From: a virus
Lineage: Duplodnaviria > Heunggongvirae > Uroviricota > Caudoviricetes
Length of the DNA: 4,715 nt
Strand: one strand, 5' to 3'
IMG/VR virus record: IMGVR_UViG_2667527792_000004
A program made the translations under genes and the position numbers. The notes below the pieces were generated by a model. It did not search any database. It was given only the letters and a program-made list of their open reading frames with translations, and was not told the origin of the DNA. Positions 1-4,715 of the stretch are shown piece after piece (within the stretch, counting starts at the first letter, position 1; each line of letters opens with the position of its first letter).

Positions 1-425
1 AATTAGACCAGCAATATCTAAAAGATCTACTTATCGCATTCGAAAAAACTCATGGCCCTGACACGATGCTTAGTGAACTAGAGGATAATGGCTTTAATAG
101 ATATGACCAAAATTTTATTTTCCATATGCGATTATTATGCGACTACGAATTAATAGTCAGGGTTGATGGAAAACCTGGGTTCGGTCATATAATGTCCAAC
201 GAGTTAGGGGAAGGTGTTGGATATAGTTGGATCGAAGTACCACTGAGGTTGACAGCAAGAGGGCATGATTTTATTGCTGACTTGCGTCAAAAGGAGGTCT
301 GGCAAACTATAAAAACAAACTTTAAGGATGAGGGAATTAGTACACTAATAAGTGTTTCAAAATCACTAGCAAAAGGCTTTGCAAGGAAAAAGATAAAAGA
401 TATTACAGGAATAGATATTGAATAA
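1..425 (+). CDS. 5'-partial hypothetical phage accessory protein (ea-region moron; tentatively resembles DUF2513-type small phage proteins)
   Basis: The frame is open from base 3 to TAA 423-425 (141 codons). There is no in-frame start before ATG 66 and no Shine-Dalgarno in front of ATG 66, so the true start is probably just upstream of the window. The segment is visibly AT-rich compared with the rest of the window. It sits where ea8.5 lies in phage lambda. The family assignment is from memory of motif spacing only. Confidence 0.55.
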   Translation, partial: LDQQYLKDLLIAFEKTHGPDTMLSELEDNGFNRYDQNFIFHMRLLCDYELIVRVDGKPGFGHIMSNELGEGVGYSWIEVPLRLTARGHDFIADLRQKEVWQTIKTNFKDEGISTLISVSKSLAKGFARKKIKDITGIDIE

Positions 426-469
426 TTCTTAGCATCAGCAACTACTGCCTTTGGTGGAAATTATATCTG

Positions 470-496
470 AACTCGCTACGGCGAGTTTTGTTTTAT
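470..496 (+). terminator. Putative intrinsic terminator hairpin (AACTCGC-TACG-GCGAGTT) followed by a T-rich tract
   Basis: Perfect 7-bp inverted repeat at 470-476 and 481-487 with a 4-nt loop, then TTGTTTTAT. Lies between the accessory ORF and the 55-aa ORF. Confidence 0.4.
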
Positions 497-507
497 GGAG
501 ATGATAA

Positions 508-675
508 ATGCACTTCCGAGTCACAGGTGAATGGAATGGAGAACCATTCAACAGAGTTATCGAAGCAGAGAACATCAATGACTGCTATGACCACTGGATG
601 ATATGGGCCCAGATAGCACATGCAGACATAACCAATATTCGAATTGAAGAACTGAAAGAACACCAAGCCGCCTGA
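508..675 (+). CDS. Small hypothetical protein, 55 aa, matching the lambda ORF between ea8.5 and xis (orf55 / lambdap35-like)
   Basis: ATG 508 is preceded by GGAG at 497-500 (7-nt spacing). Translation is MHFRVTGEWNGEPFNRVIEAENINDCYDHWMIWAQIAHADITNIRIEELKEHQAA, near-identical to my recollection of the lambda ORF at this position. It is below the 60-aa cutoff of the supplied ORF track. Confidence 0.7.
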   Translation: MHFRVTGEWNGEPFNRVIEAENINDCYDHWMIWAQIAHADITNIRIEELKEHQAA

Positions 676-690
676 TGGCGGTTTTTTCTT
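666..690 (+). terminator. Putative intrinsic terminator (GCCGCC-TGAT-GGCGG stem-loop plus T6 run); the stop codon of the 55-aa ORF lies in the loop
   Basis: Inverted repeat 667-672 / 677-681 followed by TTTTTT at 682-687. Confidence 0.45.
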
Positions 691-702
691 GCGTGTAATT
701 GC
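689..702 (+). promoter_or_regulatory. cII-type activator site TTGC-N6-TTGC of the int promoter pI (-35 region)
   Basis: TTGCGTGTAATTGC has direct TTGC repeats 6 nt apart, the arrangement of cII sites at lambda pRE, pI and paQ. Its position puts the transcription start inside the first codons of xis, as known for pI. Confidence 0.55.
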
Positions 703-714
703 GGAGACTTTGCG

Positions 715-933
715 ATGTACTTGACACTTCAGGAGTGGAACGCTCGCCAGCGACGCCCAAGAAGCCTTGAAACAGTTCGTCGATGGGTGCGCGAATGCAG
801 GATATTCCCTCCTCCGGTTAAGGATGGAAGAGAATATCTGTTCCACGAATCAGCGGTAAAGGTTGACTTAAATCGACCAGTAACAGGTAGCCTTTTGAAG
901 AGGATCAGAAATGGGAAGAAGGCGAAGTCATGA
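715..933 (+). CDS. xis: Excisionase Xis (lambda-type), 72 aa
   Basis: Full-length ORF whose translation (MYLTLQEWNARQRRPRSLETVRRWVRECRIFPPPVKDGREYLFHESAVKVDLNRPVTGSLLKRIRNGKKAKS) matches lambda Xis as I recall it. GGAG lies 8 nt upstream. Its 3' end overlaps int by 23 bp, as in lambda. Confidence 0.95.
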   Translation: MYLTLQEWNARQRRPRSLETVRRWVRECRIFPPPVKDGREYLFHESAVKVDLNRPVTGSLLKRIRNGKKAKS

Positions 934-1981
934 GCGCCGGGATTTACCCCCTAACCTTTATATAAGAAACAATGGATATTACTGCTACAGGGACCCAAGG
1001 ACGGGTAAAGAGTTTGGATTAGGCCGAGACAGGCGAATCGCAATCACTGAAGCTATACAGGCCAACATTGAGTTATTTTCAGGACACAAACACAAGCCTC
1101 TGACAGCGAGAATCAACAGTGATAATTCCGTTACGTTACATTCATGGCTTGATCGCTACGAAAAAATCCTGGCCAGCAGAGGAATCAAGCAGAAGACACT
1201 CATAAATTACATGAGCAAAATTAAAGCAATAAGGAGGGGTCTGCCTGATGCTCCACTTGAAGACATCACCACAAAAGAAATTGCGGCAATGCTCAATGGA
1301 TACATAGACGAGGGAAAGGCGGCATCAGCCAAGTTAATCAGATCAACACTGAGCGATGCATTCCGAGAGGCTATGGCTGAAGGCCATATAACAACAAACC
1401 CGGTCGCAGCCACTCGCGCTGCAAAATCAGAGGTAAGGAGATCAAGACTTACGGCTGACGAATACCTGAAAATTTATCAAGCAGCAGAATCATCACCATG
1501 TTGGCTTAGACTTGCAATGGAACTGGCTGTTGTTACCGGGCAGCGAGTTGGTGATTTATGCGAAATGAAGTGGTCTGATATCGTAGATGGATATCTTTAT
1601 GTCGAGCAAAGCAAAACAGGCGTAAAAATTGCCATCCCAACAACATTGCATGTTGATGCTCTCGGGATATCAATGAAGGAAACACTTGATAAATGCAAAA
1701 AGATTCTTGGCGGAGAAACCATAATTGCATCTACTCGTCGTGAACCGCTTTCATCCGGCACAGTATCAAGGTATTTTATGCGCGCACGAAAAGCATCAGG
1801 TCTCTCCTTCGAAGGGGATCCGCCAACCTTTCACGAGTTGCGCAGTTTGTCTGCAAGACTCTATGAGAAGCAGATAAGCGATAAATTTGCTCAACATCTT
1901 CTCGGGCATAAGTCGGACACCATGGCATCACAGTATCGTGATGACAGAGGCAGGGAGTGGGACAAAATTGAAATCAAATAA
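911..1981 (+). CDS. int: Tyrosine site-specific integrase Int (lambda-type), 356 aa
   Basis: The 356-aa translation begins MGRRRSHERRDLPPNLYIRNNGYYCYRDPRTGKEFGLGRDRRIAITEAIQ and ends HLLGHKSDTMASQYRDDRGREWDKIEIK, matching lambda Int apart from a few substitutions. It contains the BamHI site (GGATCC 1816-1821) characteristic of lambda int. Confidence 0.97.
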   Translation: MGRRRSHERRDLPPNLYIRNNGYYCYRDPRTGKEFGLGRDRRIAITEAIQANIELFSGHKHKPLTARINSDNSVTLHSWLDRYEKILASRGIKQKTLINYMSKIKAIRRGLPDAPLEDITTKEIAAMLNGYIDEGKAASAKLIRSTLSDAFREAMAEGHITTNPVAATRAAKSEVRRSRLTADEYLKIYQAAESSPCWLRLAMELAVVTGQRVGDLCEMKWSDIVDGYLYVEQSKTGVKIAIPTTLHVDALGISMKETLDKCKKILGGETIIASTRREPLSSGTVSRYFMRARKASGLSFEGDPPTFHELRSLSARLYEKQISDKFAQHLLGHKSDTMASQYRDDRGREWDKIEIK

Positions 1982-2009
1982 TGATTTTATTTTGACTGAT
2001 AGTGACCTG
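1978..2009 (+). other. Int arm-type binding sites P'3, P'2, P'1 of the P' arm
   Basis: ATAATGATTTT (1978-1988), ATTTTGACTGA (1989-1999) and ATAGTGACCTG (1999-2009) are reverse complements of the arm-type consensus C/AAGTCACTAT. P'3 overlaps the int stop codon. Confidence 0.7.
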
Positions 2010-2016
2010 TTCGTTG

Positions 2017-2030
2017 CAACAAATTGATAA
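2017..2030 (+). other. IHF binding site H' of attL
   Basis: CAACAAATTGATAA fits the reverse complement of the IHF consensus WATCAANNNNTTR (YAANNNNTTGATW). Confidence 0.55.
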
Positions 2031-2035
2031 GCAAT

Positions 2036-2069
2036 GCTTTTTTATAATGCCAACTTAGTATAAAAAAGC
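2036..2069 (+). repeat. Perfect 11-bp inverted repeat (GCTTTTTTATA ... TATAAAAAAGC) spanning the inner P' arm and the core
   Basis: Seen directly: 2036-2046 and 2059-2069 are reverse complements separated by 12 nt. It is an intrinsic feature of lambda att DNA. Confidence 0.8.
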
Positions 2070-2115
2070 AGGCTTCAACGGATTCATTTTTCTATTTCAT
2101 AGCCCGGAGCAACCT

Positions 2116-2140
2116 GTGAACACATTTTCAGTTTCCCGTC
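2116..2140 (+). pseudogene. ybhC: 5' remnant of ybhC (first ~8 codons with its RBS), the host gene flanking att-lambda on the gal side
   Basis: GGAG at 2106-2109 then GTG 2116. Translation VNTFSVSR matches the N-terminus I recall for YbhC (MNTFSVSRLALALAF...). The frame then diverges and stops at TGA 2161-2163. Confidence 0.4.
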
Positions 2141-2384
2141 AGCAACAGCGGCCCCAGGTCTGAAACCGTCGCCCGTACCGAATGGCCTTTCTCGCCAAAG
2201 ATATCCCACACCACCACCGGATTAGCATGCGGTTGCCAGTCATTTACGCCGATATTTTTAAGCCTTGCGAGCAGTTTTTCCCCCTGGTTAAATACGCCAG
2301 AAGTCTTGCTGATTACGCTCGATGGCAGCGAAGTTCCCGACGTGCTGGCGGATTATTTGCGCCGCTTTCAGCCTGATTGGGTGG

Positions 2385-2522
2385 ATAGCCGAGTTGCAGA
2401 GTATGCAGCGTTCCTTGCAACGCCTTAACGATGCCTGTTGTGGGACCGCCCATAGCAGTGTTTATTGTTCGATTCTTGAAGCTCTTGAACAAGGGGCGAG
2501 TGGCGTTAAGAGTGGCTGTTGA
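2385..2522 (+). pseudogene. zntR: 3' fragment of zntR (MerR-family Zn-responsive regulator), last ~45 codons only
   Basis: Translation IAELQSMQRSLQRLNDACCGTAHSSVYCSILEALEQGASGVKSGC matches ZntR residues ~97-141, including the metal ligands C114, C115, H119 and C124. There is no start and no HTH domain, and the upstream sequence in this frame is unrelated with stops at 2289 and 2310. Confidence 0.7.
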
Positions 2523-2577
2523 TTTTTTGCACTGGCAGGATTACACTCGCGCCGTAAAATAACCAATTGGAGTTTTT

Positions 2578-2796
2578 ATGAGCCGATATCAGCATACTAA
2601 AGGGCAGATAAAGGATAATGCGATAGAAGCATTACTACATGATCCCTTATTCCGACAGCGCGTAGAGAAAAATAAGAAGGGGAAAGGCAGTTACATGCGA
2701 AAAGGAAAACATGGCAATCGGGGGAACTGGGAGGCCAGTGGCAAGAAAGTAAATCACTTTTTTACCACTGGTCTTCTGCTTTCAGGCGCTTGTTAA
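2578..2796 (+). CDS. arfA: Alternative ribosome-rescue factor A (ArfA / YhdL), 72 aa, intact
   Basis: Translation [72 protein letters not shown] matches E. coli ArfA as I recall it. GGAG at 2569-2572 lies 5 nt upstream of the ATG. It is directly downstream of zntR on the same strand, as in K-12. Confidence 0.85.
2733..2773 (+). promoter_or_regulatory. Stem-loop inside the arfA 3' coding region (candidate RNase III processing hairpin)
   Basis: CCAGTGG at 2735-2741 pairs with CCACTGG at 2765-2771, with further imperfect pairing inside. arfA mRNA is known to be cleaved by RNase III in a 3' hairpin to give a non-stop mRNA regulated by tmRNA. Confidence 0.5.
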
Positions 2797-2808
2797 GAGC
2801 GGTTATGC

Positions 2809-3087
2809 ATGATCGGCGACCCGACTGGCGCCCTGACCCGTAACTTCGACAACATGCGTGAAGATGAAGGTCTGGCTGATCGTGCGACCTTCGTTGTTGA
2901 CCCGCAGGGTATCATCCAGGCAATCGAAGTTACCGCTGAAGGCATTGGCCGTGACGCGTCTGACCTGCTGCGTAAAATCAAAGCAGCACAGTACGTAGCT
3001 TCTCACCCAGGTGAAGTTTGCCCGGCTAAATGGAAAGAAGGTGAAGCAACTCTGGCTCCGTCTCTGGACCTGGTTGGTAAAATCTAA
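2809..3087 (+). pseudogene. ahpC: C-terminal half of AhpC (alkyl hydroperoxide reductase, peroxiredoxin subunit), 5'-truncated
   Basis: Translation [92 protein letters not shown] matches AhpC residues ~96-187. The resolving Cys in VCPAKW is present, but the N-terminal peroxidatic Cys region is absent. The M at 2809 is an internal Met of AhpC. Confidence 0.85.
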
Positions 3088-3106
3088 GTTCCGCAATCGC
3101 GTAATT

Positions 3107-3136
3107 AATCGGGTGCTGCGGCACCCGATTTTCTTC
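3107..3136 (+). terminator. Intrinsic terminator/attenuator between ahpC and ahpF
   Basis: 10-bp stem AATCGGGTGC / GCACCCGATT (3107-3116 / 3121-3130) with loop TGCG, followed by a T-rich run. It lies 20 nt after the ahpC stop. Confidence 0.6.
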
Positions 3137-3215
3137 CCCGCACCATGATGCAAGCTGCATCCAGGTAGCCGCAGAGGCCGCTTGCATGATGATGTTTAAA
3201 GCCCAGGAGATAAAC

Positions 3216-4199
3216 ATGCTCGACACAAATATGAAAACTCAACTCAAGGCTTACCTTGAGAAATTGACCAAGCCTGTTGAGTTAATTGCCACGCTGGATG
3301 ACAGCGCTAAATCGGCAGAAATCAAGGAACTGTTGGCTGAAATCGCAGAACTGTCAGACAAAGTCACCTTTAAAGAAGATAACAGCTTGCCGGTGCGTAA
3401 GCCGTCTTTCCTGATCACCAACCCAGGTTCCAACCAGGGGCCACGTTTTGCAGGCTCCCCGCTGGGCCACGAGTTCACCTCGCTGGTACTGGCGTTGCTG
3501 TGGACCGGTGGTCATCCGTCGAAAGAAGCGCAGTCTCTGCTGGAGCAGATTCGCCATATTGACGGTGATTTTGAATTCGAAACCTATTACTCGCTCTCTT
3601 GCCACAACTGCCCGGACGTGGTGCAGGCGCTGAACCTGATGAGCGTACTGAACCCGCGCATCAAGCACACTGCAATTGACGGCGGCACCTTCCAGAACGA
3701 AATCACCGATCGCAACGTGATGGGCGTTCCGGCAGTGTTCGTAAACGGGAAAGAGTTTGGTCAGGGCCGCATGACGTTGACTGAAATCGTTGCCAAAATT
3801 GATACTGGCGCGGAAAAACGTGCGGCAGAAGAGCTGAACAAGCGTGATGCTTATGACGTATTAATCGTCGGTTCCGGCCCGGCGGGTGCAGCGGCAGCAA
3901 TTTACTCCGCACGTAAAGGCATCCGTACCGGTCTGATGGGCGAACGTTTTGGTGGTCAGATCCTCGATACCGTTGATATCGAAAACTACATTTCTGTACC
4001 GAAGACTGAAGGGCAGAAGCTGGCAGGCGCACTGAAAGTTCACGTTGATGAATACGACGTTGATGTGATCGACAGCCAGAGCGCCAGCAAACTGATCCCG
4101 GCAGCGGTTGACCAGCACGTTTTCCGCAGCTGTGGGTCAAAGAGGCATGATGCGACGCTTGTTCCTGCGCTTTGTTCATGCCGGATACGGCTAATGTAG
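3216..4199 (+). pseudogene. ahpF: ahpF (alkyl hydroperoxide reductase subunit F), 3'-truncated: homology covers about the first 298 codons, then unrelated sequence to a stop
   Basis: AGGAGA at 3205-3210 then ATG 3216. Translation [29 protein letters not shown] ... [17 protein letters not shown] ... [12 protein letters not shown] matches the AhpF N-terminal domain and the start of the FAD domain. After ~4110 it reads [29 protein letters not shown]-stop instead of the AhpF sequence EGGLHQIETASG... Confidence 0.85.
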
Positions 4200-4212
4200 A
4201 TCGCTGAACTTG

Positions 4213-4240
4213 TAGGCCTGATAAGCGCAGCGTATCAGGC
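4213..4240 (+). repeat. REP-like palindromic element (GTAGGCCTGATA ... TATCAGGC)
   Basis: GCCTGATA at 4216-4223 and TATCAGGC at 4233-4240 are reverse complements around a 9-nt centre, preceded by GTAG. Another REP-like motif (GATGCGACGCTT) lies about 60 bp upstream. Confidence 0.5.
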
Positions 4241-4271
4241 AATTTTTATAATTTAAACTGACGATTCAACT

Positions 4272-4430
4272 TTATAATCTTTGAAAAATATCGCCAGAGA
4301 CGAACGGGAAACTGATACACAGCAACCCGACGATAAACAACAGCACGGCAATAAACTGGATTGCTCTGCGATGTTTTTTAAGCATCTCCAGATCAAACTT
4401 CAAAATTGTTGCCTTATCTATATATAACAT
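4272..4430 (-). CDS. Hypothetical small hydrophobic protein, 52 aa (single predicted TM helix)
   Basis: Minus-strand ORF giving MLYIDKATILKFDLEMLKKHRRAIQFIAVLLFIVGLLCISFPFVSGDIFQRL. GGTGG lies 4 nt upstream of the ATG. It has a charged N-terminal part followed by a ~22-residue hydrophobic stretch. It is absent from the ORF track because it is under 60 aa, and I do not recognise it. Confidence 0.3.
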   Translation of the reverse strand: MLYIDKATILKFDLEMLKKHRRAIQFIAVLLFIVGLLCISFPFVSGDIFQRL

Positions 4431-4469
4431 AGAACCACCCTATAAAATTAAGAAGAAAATCCCCTGCTA

Positions 4470-4715
4470 TCAATCTATGCCAAAAACGCGTCTAAGAATG
4501 CAGTCGGAGGGCCATTCCGGCAGTACGCTCAGAATATGGCGCAGATACGCTTCCGGATCGATACCGTTCAGACGGCAGGTGCCGATCAGCCCGTACAGCA
4601 GTGCTCCACGCTCGCCGCCGTGATCGCTACCGAAGAACACGTAATTTTTCTTTCCGAGACAGACTGCACGAAGCGCTCTTTCCGCTGTGTTATTGTCCAC
4701 CTCCGCCAGACCGTC
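4470..4715 (-). CDS. IS66-family transposase (TnpC-like), C-terminal 81 codons; the 5' part lies beyond the window end
   Basis: Minus-strand translation ...DGLAEVDNNTAERALRAVCLGKKNYVFFGSDHGGERGALLYGLIGTCRLNGIDPEAYLRHILSVLPEWP... carries the conserved IS66 transposase C-terminal signature (DNN-AER-LR ... GRKN-F-GS ... LNG-DPEAYL). The frame is open to the window edge. The M at 4700 in the ORF track is a GTG within the protein. Confidence 0.7.
   Translation of the reverse strand, partial: DGLAEVDNNTAERALRAVCLGKKNYVFFGSDHGGERGALLYGLIGTCRLNGIDPEAYLRHILSVLPEWPSDCILRRVFGID
4470..4715 (-). mobile_element. 3' portion of an IS66-family insertion sequence; element boundary not identified
   Basis: Transposase fragment as above. 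No GTAAGCG-type terminal inverted repeat is visible between 4200 and 4470. Confidence 0.5.

Follow-up and report, generated by a model that had tools for sequence, protein, structure and literature searches.

A 4715-bp contig with a lambda-family prophage end joins eight unrelated Escherichia coli segments and is probably a chimeric molecule made in vitro

Does a prophage end that is followed by a string of unrelated bacterial gene fragments represent a natural locus, or a molecule that was put together outside the cell? This question is raised by the virus record IMGVR_UViG_2667527792_000004, whose 4,715 nucleotides are referred to here as the window. The whole window is the complete 4715-bp contig CDRT01000831.1 of assembly GCA_001373215.1, and the contig numbering of this public draft runs to at least 831, indicating that the assembly is heavily fragmented. 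A first-pass annotation had described the region 2070-4715 as a patchwork of unrelated chromosomal pieces beside a prophage end. Our analysis showed that the patchwork is real and is more broken up than previously described. The window consists of eight unrelated E. coli segments placed end to end, which meet at seven junctions (J1 to J7; Table 1). The prophage end is one more fragment among these and no special partner.

Within its own boundaries, each segment has a 100% match in at least one complete E. coli genome, with the SNP at 609 as the sole exception, and the matches are far above chance (local BLAST E-values from 5e-51 to 0). Every base of the window maps to E. coli chromosome, prophage or IS, and neither N gaps nor linker sequences were found in it. 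The fragments measure 104-1305 nt, instead of the 0.25-1.3 kb given earlier, and the two end pieces have minimum lengths of 209 and 2140 nt. All identifiable genes had been placed head-to-tail on the + strand, but yjgR, mscL', lacA', hdeD' and the IS66 tnpC' lie on the - strand, so that the orientations of the segments are mixed. The breaks cut genes without regard to features; downstream of 2140, arfA is the only intact gene, and all others there are stumps. We concluded that the contig has no function as a unit.

Table 1. Segments of the window, their features and the junctions between them
Feature	Positions	Strand	Remarks
Segment 1a: lambda-family prophage end	1-2069	+	Annotations from ATCC 8739 and more than 20 other complete genomes
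DUF2513 gene (segment 1a)	3-425		Cut by contig end 4 nt after start codon
ORF55 (segment 1a)	508-675
xis (segment 1a)	715-933
int (segment 1a)	911-1981
attL P' arm with 15-nt core TTAGTATAAAAAAGC (segment 1a)	2055-2069 (core)		Letters read directly from sequence
Segment 1b: native bacterial attL flank	2070-2140	+	Contiguous with prophage in ATCC 8739
ybhC, first 25 nt (codons 1-8)	2116-2140		Start placed by ATCC 8739 locus; J1 after 2140
Segment 2: interior of yjgR (HerA-like helicase gene), 141 nt	2141-2281	-	100% to 14EC047 yjgR; J2 after 2281
Segment 3: interior of accessory slipin-family gene, 104 nt	2282-2385	+	Exact match; annotated in TCM3e1; J3 after 2385
Segment 4: zntR'-arfA-mscL'	2386-2806	+	2383-2806 100% to M8 and many others; J4 after 2806
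zntR, last 140 nt (segment 4)	to 2522
arfA, complete (segment 4)	2578-2796
mscL, last 14 nt, convergent (segment 4)	2793-2806	-
Segment 5: ahpC'-ahpF'	2807-4111	+	ahpC 3' part, ahpC-ahpF spacer, ahpF 5' part; J5 after 4111
ahpC 3' part, residual ORF (segment 5)	2809-3087
ahpF, 5' 896 nt (segment 5)	3216-4111
Segment 6: cynX'-REP-lacA'	4112-4286	+	4111-4286 exact match to strain 504838; J6 after 4286
cynX, last ~40 nt (segment 6)
cynX-lacA intergenic REP element (segment 6)
lacA, last ~34 nt (segment 6)		-
Segment 7: hdeD' and spacer	4287-4506	-	4285-4506 100% to M8; J7 after 4506
hdeD, first 144 nt (segment 7)	4287-4430	-
hdeD-hdeA spacer, 76 nt (segment 7)
Segment 8: interior of IS66-family (ISEc47-like) tnpC	4507-4715	-	4506-4715 exact match to WP7-S17-ESBL-04

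Over segment 1 as a whole (1-2140), ATCC 8739 and more than 20 further complete genomes differ from the window at position 609 only. Its phage matches, namely Chlobot (98.0%), mEp332 (99.1%), lambda (97.8%) and 434 (98.1%), end at 2069-2073. Positions 2055-2069, which we take to be the att core by comparison with the lambda core, belong to an ordinary attL that is contiguous with the native flank to 2140 in more than 20 genomes. The true attB-side flank covers 2070-2140 only, and the stretch 2141-2385, previously assigned to the att-lambda flank, is composed of the yjgR and slipin-family pieces. The slipin-family gene adjoins yjbD/rluF and was found in 1631 of the 5426 genomes (about 30% of E. 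coli). Four breakpoints that had been named earlier (2140; 2383-2385; 2806/2807; 4111) are real, while three others (2281, 4286 and 4506) had been missed. Additionally, the REP-containing region can now be labelled more exactly as the cynX-lacA intergenic region, and the stretch between it and IS66 is assigned to the 5' end of hdeD and the hdeD-hdeA spacer. The native stop codon of tnpC would lie 51 nt beyond the point where the piece is cut, and the piece extends to the contig end.

A contiguous alignment to one natural locus would, according to the first-pass annotation, refute the patchwork, and none was found: the arrangement is absent from 5426 complete E. coli genomes, 72,556 plasmids and 50,697 phage records. 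When contiguity was taken as at least 80% of 2070-4715, of 2120-2420 or of 4090-4715 in one place, 0 of the 5426 genomes passed. None of J1 to J7 occurs singly in these genomes either. Two junction strings are absent from the GTDB species representatives, and one is absent from the JGI metagenomes. Based on this lack of recurrence in genomes, plasmids, phages, GTDB representatives and JGI metagenomes, we rejected a natural contiguous locus or genomic island. The native sites of neighbouring segments lie at least 0.2 Mb apart, where they were measured within one genome. In M8, ahpCF is located at 0.81 Mb, arfA at 3.88 Mb and hdeD at 4.08 Mb; in 14EC047, yjgR is located at 4.41 Mb and arfA at 0.47 Mb; in 2014C-4135, cynX/lacA is at 0.10 Mb and ahpCF at 4.74 Mb; and in WCHEC020031, hdeD is at 3.79 Mb and cynX/lacA at 2.40 Mb.

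The junctions are random and nearly blunt, and their overlaps fit chance. From J1 to J7, the exact overlaps between the joined sources are 1, 0, 3, 0, 1, 2 and 1 nt, including GGA common to both source loci at J3 (2383-2385) and AA common to both sources at J6 (4285-4286). Their sum of 8 compares with 4.7 expected under random blunt joining (P = 0.13, analytic negative-binomial). At J4, which shares no nucleotide, there is also a 2-nt irregularity: against M8, the region 2804-4111 shows 0 mismatches and 1 gap, and the gap is at the junction, so that the GC at 2807-2808 is either filler or belongs to a native TATGC with a 1-nt deletion behind it. The native flanks were compared by banded local alignment, with 20,000 random pairs as reference; homology across the junctions was not significant overall (Fisher P = 0.16), which led us to reject homology-driven joining. 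The best homology of any junction is an imperfect 13/16 between the source loci at J2, with P of about 0.008 alone and about 0.06 corrected for seven junctions. At none of the junctions do the sources share a repeat of the length at which an assembler could be misled (about 20 nt or more).

In terms of specific cutting or recombination, the junctions likewise show no common feature. Neither a common restriction site nor a 4- or 6-nt palindrome is shared across the junctions or the 14 native ends. GATC and CATG occur near J4 only, and the GATC at 2811-2814 is native ahpC sequence. Restriction-ligation products, such as library clones or 3C/Hi-C/Pore-C concatemers, were rejected on the lack of a common palindrome. 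No junction lies at an IS end, J7 being inside tnpC and the others touching no IS, and neither target-site nor other duplications were seen at the junctions. The earlier statements that no restriction site is shared, that no break coincides with an IS end and that GATC lies near one junction only were all borne out. A transposition or IS mosaic was rejected since the sole IS piece (4507-4715) begins inside tnpC and duplications are lacking at the junctions. J1 is located 71 nt beyond the 15-nt core and the other junctions have no att-like sequence, which led us to reject a site-specific product of lambda Int. IS, ISCR and integron mosaics and lambda specialised-transduction joints are likewise foreign patchworks beside mobile elements or prophage ends. 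However, such joints are found at the ends of elements, in att cores or at recombination sites, whereas J7 is inside tnpC, J1 is off the core and no other junction touches the end of a mobile element.

Considering that the window is a small whole contig in a fragmented assembly, that its junctions are unique and that the joins are random and nearly blunt, we favour the explanation that the contig represents a physical chimeric DNA molecule, which was joined in vitro by ligation without homology and corresponds to no natural locus. We consider this explanation probable; that the joining took place in vitro, and by ligation, is what we infer from these features. Since neither a de Bruijn nor an overlap assembler could have joined the pieces by computation on overlaps as short as these, a physical molecule must have existed. 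In this case, E. coli genomic DNA would have been randomly broken into fragments of about 0.1 to more than 2 kb, and the fragments would have been joined end to end without homology, most likely by blunt ligation of fragment to fragment while the sample or library was being prepared. The resulting concatemer may then have been multiplied, for instance through cloning or through phi29 amplification of the ligated fragments, or it may have been sequenced as one long molecule, and would have ended up as a small contig of a poor draft assembly. It has been shown that blunt-end ligation followed by phi29 amplification turns short fragments into concatemers, which reach high copy number (PMC9267064). 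Blunt-ligation concatemers of the BL-WGA type and ligation-library chimeras resemble the window: their short random fragments follow each other in any order and either orientation, and the joins are not site-specific and involve essentially no homology. We observed the features of such a concatemer in the window, namely random breakpoints, random orientation, overlaps at chance level and fragment sizes as in sheared DNA. On the other hand, the flank homology at J2 exceeds a pure ligation model, and no such protocol is on record for GCA_001373215.1.

Some observations sit less easily with a ligation chimera. An unamplified one-off ligation product would fall short of the coverage for short-read assembly, so that amplification, cloning or a long read has to be assumed. 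The sequence is nearly error-free, its deviations being the private SNP at 609 and the irregularity at J4, which would be odd for a single long read from about 2015. The 13/16 match hints at annealing-driven joining, at least at J2. Additionally, the end of the contig falls within an IS66 copy, and it is at such repeats that ordinary E. coli contigs would end.

Among the alternatives, polymerase template switching during multiple displacement amplification (MDA) or PCR of a fragmented template would also give a chimera made in vitro, and we consider it unlikely. Such switching could account for the 2-3 nt that are shared at 2-3 junctions and for the homeology at J2, and amplification would explain how one molecule reached assembly coverage. 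However, MDA gives roughly one chimera per 10-20 kb, and seven switches per 2.6 kb would be far denser than this. The overlap is 0-1 nt at 4 of the 7 junctions, only 2-3 of the 7 have an overlap of at least 2 nt, and the flank homology is not significant overall. MDA chimeras, which are primed on 2-21 nt of complementarity, resemble the window in that their junctions, formed artefactually in amplified bacterial DNA, have 0-21 nt of complementarity, and that work was likewise done on E. coli (Lasken and Stockwell 2007, PMC1855051). On the other hand, more than 85% of them are inverted and intramolecular, join nearby sequences and carry short intervening deletions (PMC1855051), whereas the window joins distant loci, which lie 0.2-3 Mb apart where neighbouring pieces were measured in one genome, in both orientations and seven times in a row. 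A template-switch product of reverse transcriptase from cDNA was rejected, as the yjgR, hdeD and IS66 tnpC pieces are antisense and the others are sense.

A real and recent event in vivo is distinctly unlikely in our estimate. It would have begun with a double-strand break in ybhC outside attL, and non-homologous or microhomology-mediated repair would have captured or copied seven short fragments from other parts of the chromosome. Such an event would be the bacterial equivalent of a complex templated insertion or of serial template switching (FoSTeS/MMBIR, chromoanasynthesis). On the one hand, the overlaps of 0-3 nt, the J2 homeology and the J4 irregularity are of the kind that end-joining or template switching leaves. 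All segments are from E. coli and several of them match one small group of strains at 100% identity, fitting a single source genome, and the sequence is clean and ends in a repeat like a genuine chromosomal contig. On the other hand, none of the junctions is present in the complete genomes, and the record is a small contig of a very fragmented assembly. Had the segments been copied from native loci, the 421-nt and 1305-nt duplicates should have stopped a short-read assembler, which would have split the contig there instead of reading through. E. coli lacks Ku/LigD end-joining, and its RecBCD degrades linear fragments. Complex templated insertions and FoSTeS/MMBIR events, known from yeast dna2 mutants and human chromoanasynthesis, string together several fragments of 0.1-1.5 kb from distant sites with zero to a few nucleotides of homology. 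The window strings fragments in the same way, but those systems are eukaryotic. We know of no bacterial example of such an insertion, nor of a described capture of seven fragments at one break in E. coli. It is very unlikely that the contig stems from a genuine chromosomal locus where a ybhC break beside the lambda-family prophage was healed with seven pieces of 0.1-1.3 kb, copied or captured from scattered E. coli loci.

Purely computational mis-assembly, in which reads of different loci were joined and the molecule never existed, has hardly any probability. The assembly is very fragmented and so probably of low quality; however, the 0-3 nt shared per junction are far under any k-mer or overlap of an assembler, N gaps and linkers are missing, and seven independent false joins within 2.6 kb are implausible.

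Of the possibilities that had been left unranked, we now favour the chimera and disfavour the designed construct. For a molecule that was built deliberately or cloned with several inserts, for example a concatenated standard or the insert of a genomic library, the chance is slight indeed. Ligated sheared blunt fragments do give multi-insert clones, and this possibility merges with the in vitro ligation chimera if the latter was propagated in a vector. However, vector, marker, linker, primer and restriction-site sequences are absent, all bases being native E. coli, prophage or IS, and genes are cut at arbitrary points, with only arfA left whole downstream of 2140. The native joint between attL and chromosome in segment 1 indicates the chromosome of a lysogen, and not a phage vector.

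The main value of this analysis is a warning about data quality. Except for arfA, the gene calls downstream of 2140 are stumps or fusion products, for example the 337-aa AhpF' and 52-aa HdeD' fusions, and they should not be taken for variants of genes, for gene neighbourhoods or for the cargo of a prophage. No record was found of the AhpF' protein from its native ATG, and the two junction-spanning fusion ORFs occur only in CDRT01000831.1 among 153 billion gene positions. Further contigs of GCA_001373215.1 may be similarly chimeric, and pan-genome or synteny studies should use the assembly only after it has been vetted. The contig would be of biological note only if the junctions proved to be real in genomic DNA, since the capture of several fragments at a single break is, to our knowledge, undescribed in E. 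coli.

With regard to the source of the DNA, ATCC 8739 was rejected as a single source strain: it fits segment 1, but the sequence of segment 3 was not found in 100 kb of its genome around lysC-yjbD-rluF. The arfA, ahpCF, cynX-lacA, hdeD and yjgR segments have their 100% matches in the same few strains, namely M8, 14EC047, 13P460A and 2014C-4135.

A comparison against 5426 complete E. coli genomes, followed by local re-alignment to a single fetched representative per matching locus, showed that the window is made up of eight segments (table below), separated by junctions J1-J7 after positions 2140, 2281, 2385, 2806, 4111, 4286 and 4506. Inside its boundaries, every segment matched some complete genome exactly except for one base at 609, and in all cases the mismatches in the BLAST tables were alignment over-runs past the junctions. 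The private differences in the window are only the base at 609 and an irregularity at J4. For pairs placeable in one complete genome, the native sites of neighbouring pieces lay 0.2-3 Mb apart, and the orientation of the pieces relative to the chromosome was mixed.

Segments of the window and their gene content
Segment	Position	Strand	Content
1, prophage part (lambda-family end)	1-2069; attL core 2055-2069		DUF2513 gene, ORF55, xis, int, attL core
1, bacterial flank	2070-2140		71 nt native, including ybhC codons 1-8
2	2141-2281	-	yjgR, internal piece
3	2282-2385		Accessory slipin-family gene, internal piece
4	2386-2806	mscL' -	zntR 3' end, complete arfA, last 14 nt of mscL
5	2807-4111		ahpC 3' part, 5' 896 nt of ahpF
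6	4112-4286	lacA' -	cynX 3' end, intergenic REP element, lacA 3' end
7	4287-4506	hdeD' -	First 144 nt of hdeD, part of hdeD-hdeA spacer
8	4507-4715	-	IS66-family tnpC, interior piece

At the sequence level, the patchwork of unrelated pieces described in the first-pass annotation is real, and it is broken into more fragments than claimed. Its four breakpoints were all placed within 1-2 nt, but those after 2281, 4286 and 4506 were overlooked. The stretch 2140-2384, taken there for the att-lambda flank, is in fact yjgR and the slipin gene; the REP-containing region is cynX-lacA, and the stretch before IS66 is hdeD. The identifiable genes do not all lie on the + strand as proposed, since yjgR, mscL', lacA', hdeD' and tnpC' (primes denote truncated pieces) are on the - strand, and there is therefore no head-to-tail regularity. 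Its statements that the breaks share no restriction site and do not fall at IS ends both hold.

Phage genomes align only as far as 2069-2073, so at attL the prophage and chromosome meet in a natural joint; the joint and its flank to 2140 are contiguous in ATCC 8739 and more than 20 other genomes. Position 609, within prophage ORF55, differs from ATCC 8739. Considering that the best complete-genome matches all scored 3947 bits, calculated to correspond to one mismatch across 2140 nt, this base is probably a SNP private to the record or a consensus error. The prophage also contains a mosaic boundary (window 1-464): lambda, 434, HK106, mEp332 and others align only from about 460-464 onward, and the upstream DUF2513 gene module is common to phage Chlobot (98% identity over 1-2069) and ATCC 8739-type prophages.

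The 337-aa fusion ORF of AhpF with the cynX-lacA intergenic region had a single record, contig CDRT01000831.1 of GCA_001373215.1, and the 52-aa HdeD' fusion was likewise recorded solely there. This contig is 4715 bp long and identical to the window. The window is therefore one complete small contig of a draft assembly numbered to at least 831. The mosaic was not found in PLSDB plasmids or GenBank phages, nor were the junction strings in GTDB species representatives or JGI metagenomes.

When every source locus was extended across its junction one base at a time, the exact overlaps at J1-J7 came to 1, 0, 3, 0, 1, 2 and 1 nt. Their sum of 8, against 4.7 expected under random blunt joins, is not a significant excess (P = 0.13), and the native-flank similarity of the seven junctions combined gave a Fisher P of 0.16 (banded local alignment against 20,000 random pairs). 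Only J2 (2267-2285) showed flank similarity above chance (P = 0.008 uncorrected, about 0.06 corrected), the yjgR and slipin source loci sharing imperfect homology of 13/16 nt, GCGAGCAgtTTTTcCC versus GCGAGCAtcTTTTaCC. At J4 (2803-2814), the GC at 2807-2808 is in register with neither source; or else TATGC comes from ahpC and is followed by the loss of one G (1-nt deletion). J4 also creates the palindrome ATGCAT (2805-2810), with CATG and GATC sites of native origin immediately after it. Neither the junctions nor the 14 native ends had any 4- or 6-nt palindrome in common.

The best explanation of the patchwork is a chimera formed in vitro and kept in a low-quality draft assembly rather than a biological feature. 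We infer that a physical chimeric molecule was sequenced, because overlaps of 0-3 nt are too short for joining by a k-mer or overlap assembler. Randomly broken fragments would have been joined end-to-end without homology, possibly by blunt ligation of fragment to fragment, or short fragments may have been ligated into concatemers and then amplified with phi29, an order for which protocols exist (PMC9267064). A clean contig would require that the chimera had been amplified or cloned, or else sequenced as a single long molecule.

Much less probably, the locus is real: seven fragments would have been captured or copied to mend a break in ybhC, in a way reminiscent of the serial template switching or complex templated insertions known from eukaryotes. 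The homeology at J2, the clean sequence and a contig ending in a repeat are compatible with such a locus. We consider a repaired locus very improbable. If the pieces were extra copies in a normal E. coli genome, a short-read assembler should break at the 421-nt and 1305-nt duplicates, which also favours an artefact.

Classical multiple displacement amplification chimeras, over 85% of which are inverted and intramolecular (PMC1855051), do not match seven joins between distant loci. The tests also went against a designed construct (no vector, marker or linker, and arfA alone intact downstream of 2140), cDNA (3/8 pieces antisense), a restriction-ligation or 3C-type product (no common site), Int recombination (J1 lies 71 nt beyond the att core) and transposition (J7 falls within tnpC).

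In terms of strain origin, segment 1 is matched by ATCC 8739, and a small set of strains (M8, 14EC047, 13P460A and 2014C-4135) recurs at 100% identity for several of the other pieces. Matches to segment 3 were present in 1631 of the 5426 genomes. An accessory insert next to yjbD/rluF (locus L003, 1405-3107) consists of the slipin-family gene and, adjoining it, a gene with a nucleotidyltransferase domain. The lysC-yjbD gap of ATCC 8739 is about 250 nt and lacks this insert, and segment 3 was unmatched within the 100 kb fetched around lysC-yjbD-rluF of that strain.

In practice, our results are a warning on the gene calls of CDRT01000831.1, and possibly on those of all of GCA_001373215.1. AhpF' (3186-4199, + strand) is extended by 29 codons of cynX-lacA origin and TnpC' (4470-4700, - strand) by 11 foreign codons that derive from the hdeD-hdeA spacer, and automated gene callers called both fusion ORFs as proteins. 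The 92-aa AhpC C-terminal ORF occurs in 891 indexed blocks of the collection. Among the ahpC regions of other public assemblies (L012-L019), those of several multi-megabase assemblies have ahpC and many neighbours broken into short ORFs, which looks like indel-rich consensus rather than true truncation.
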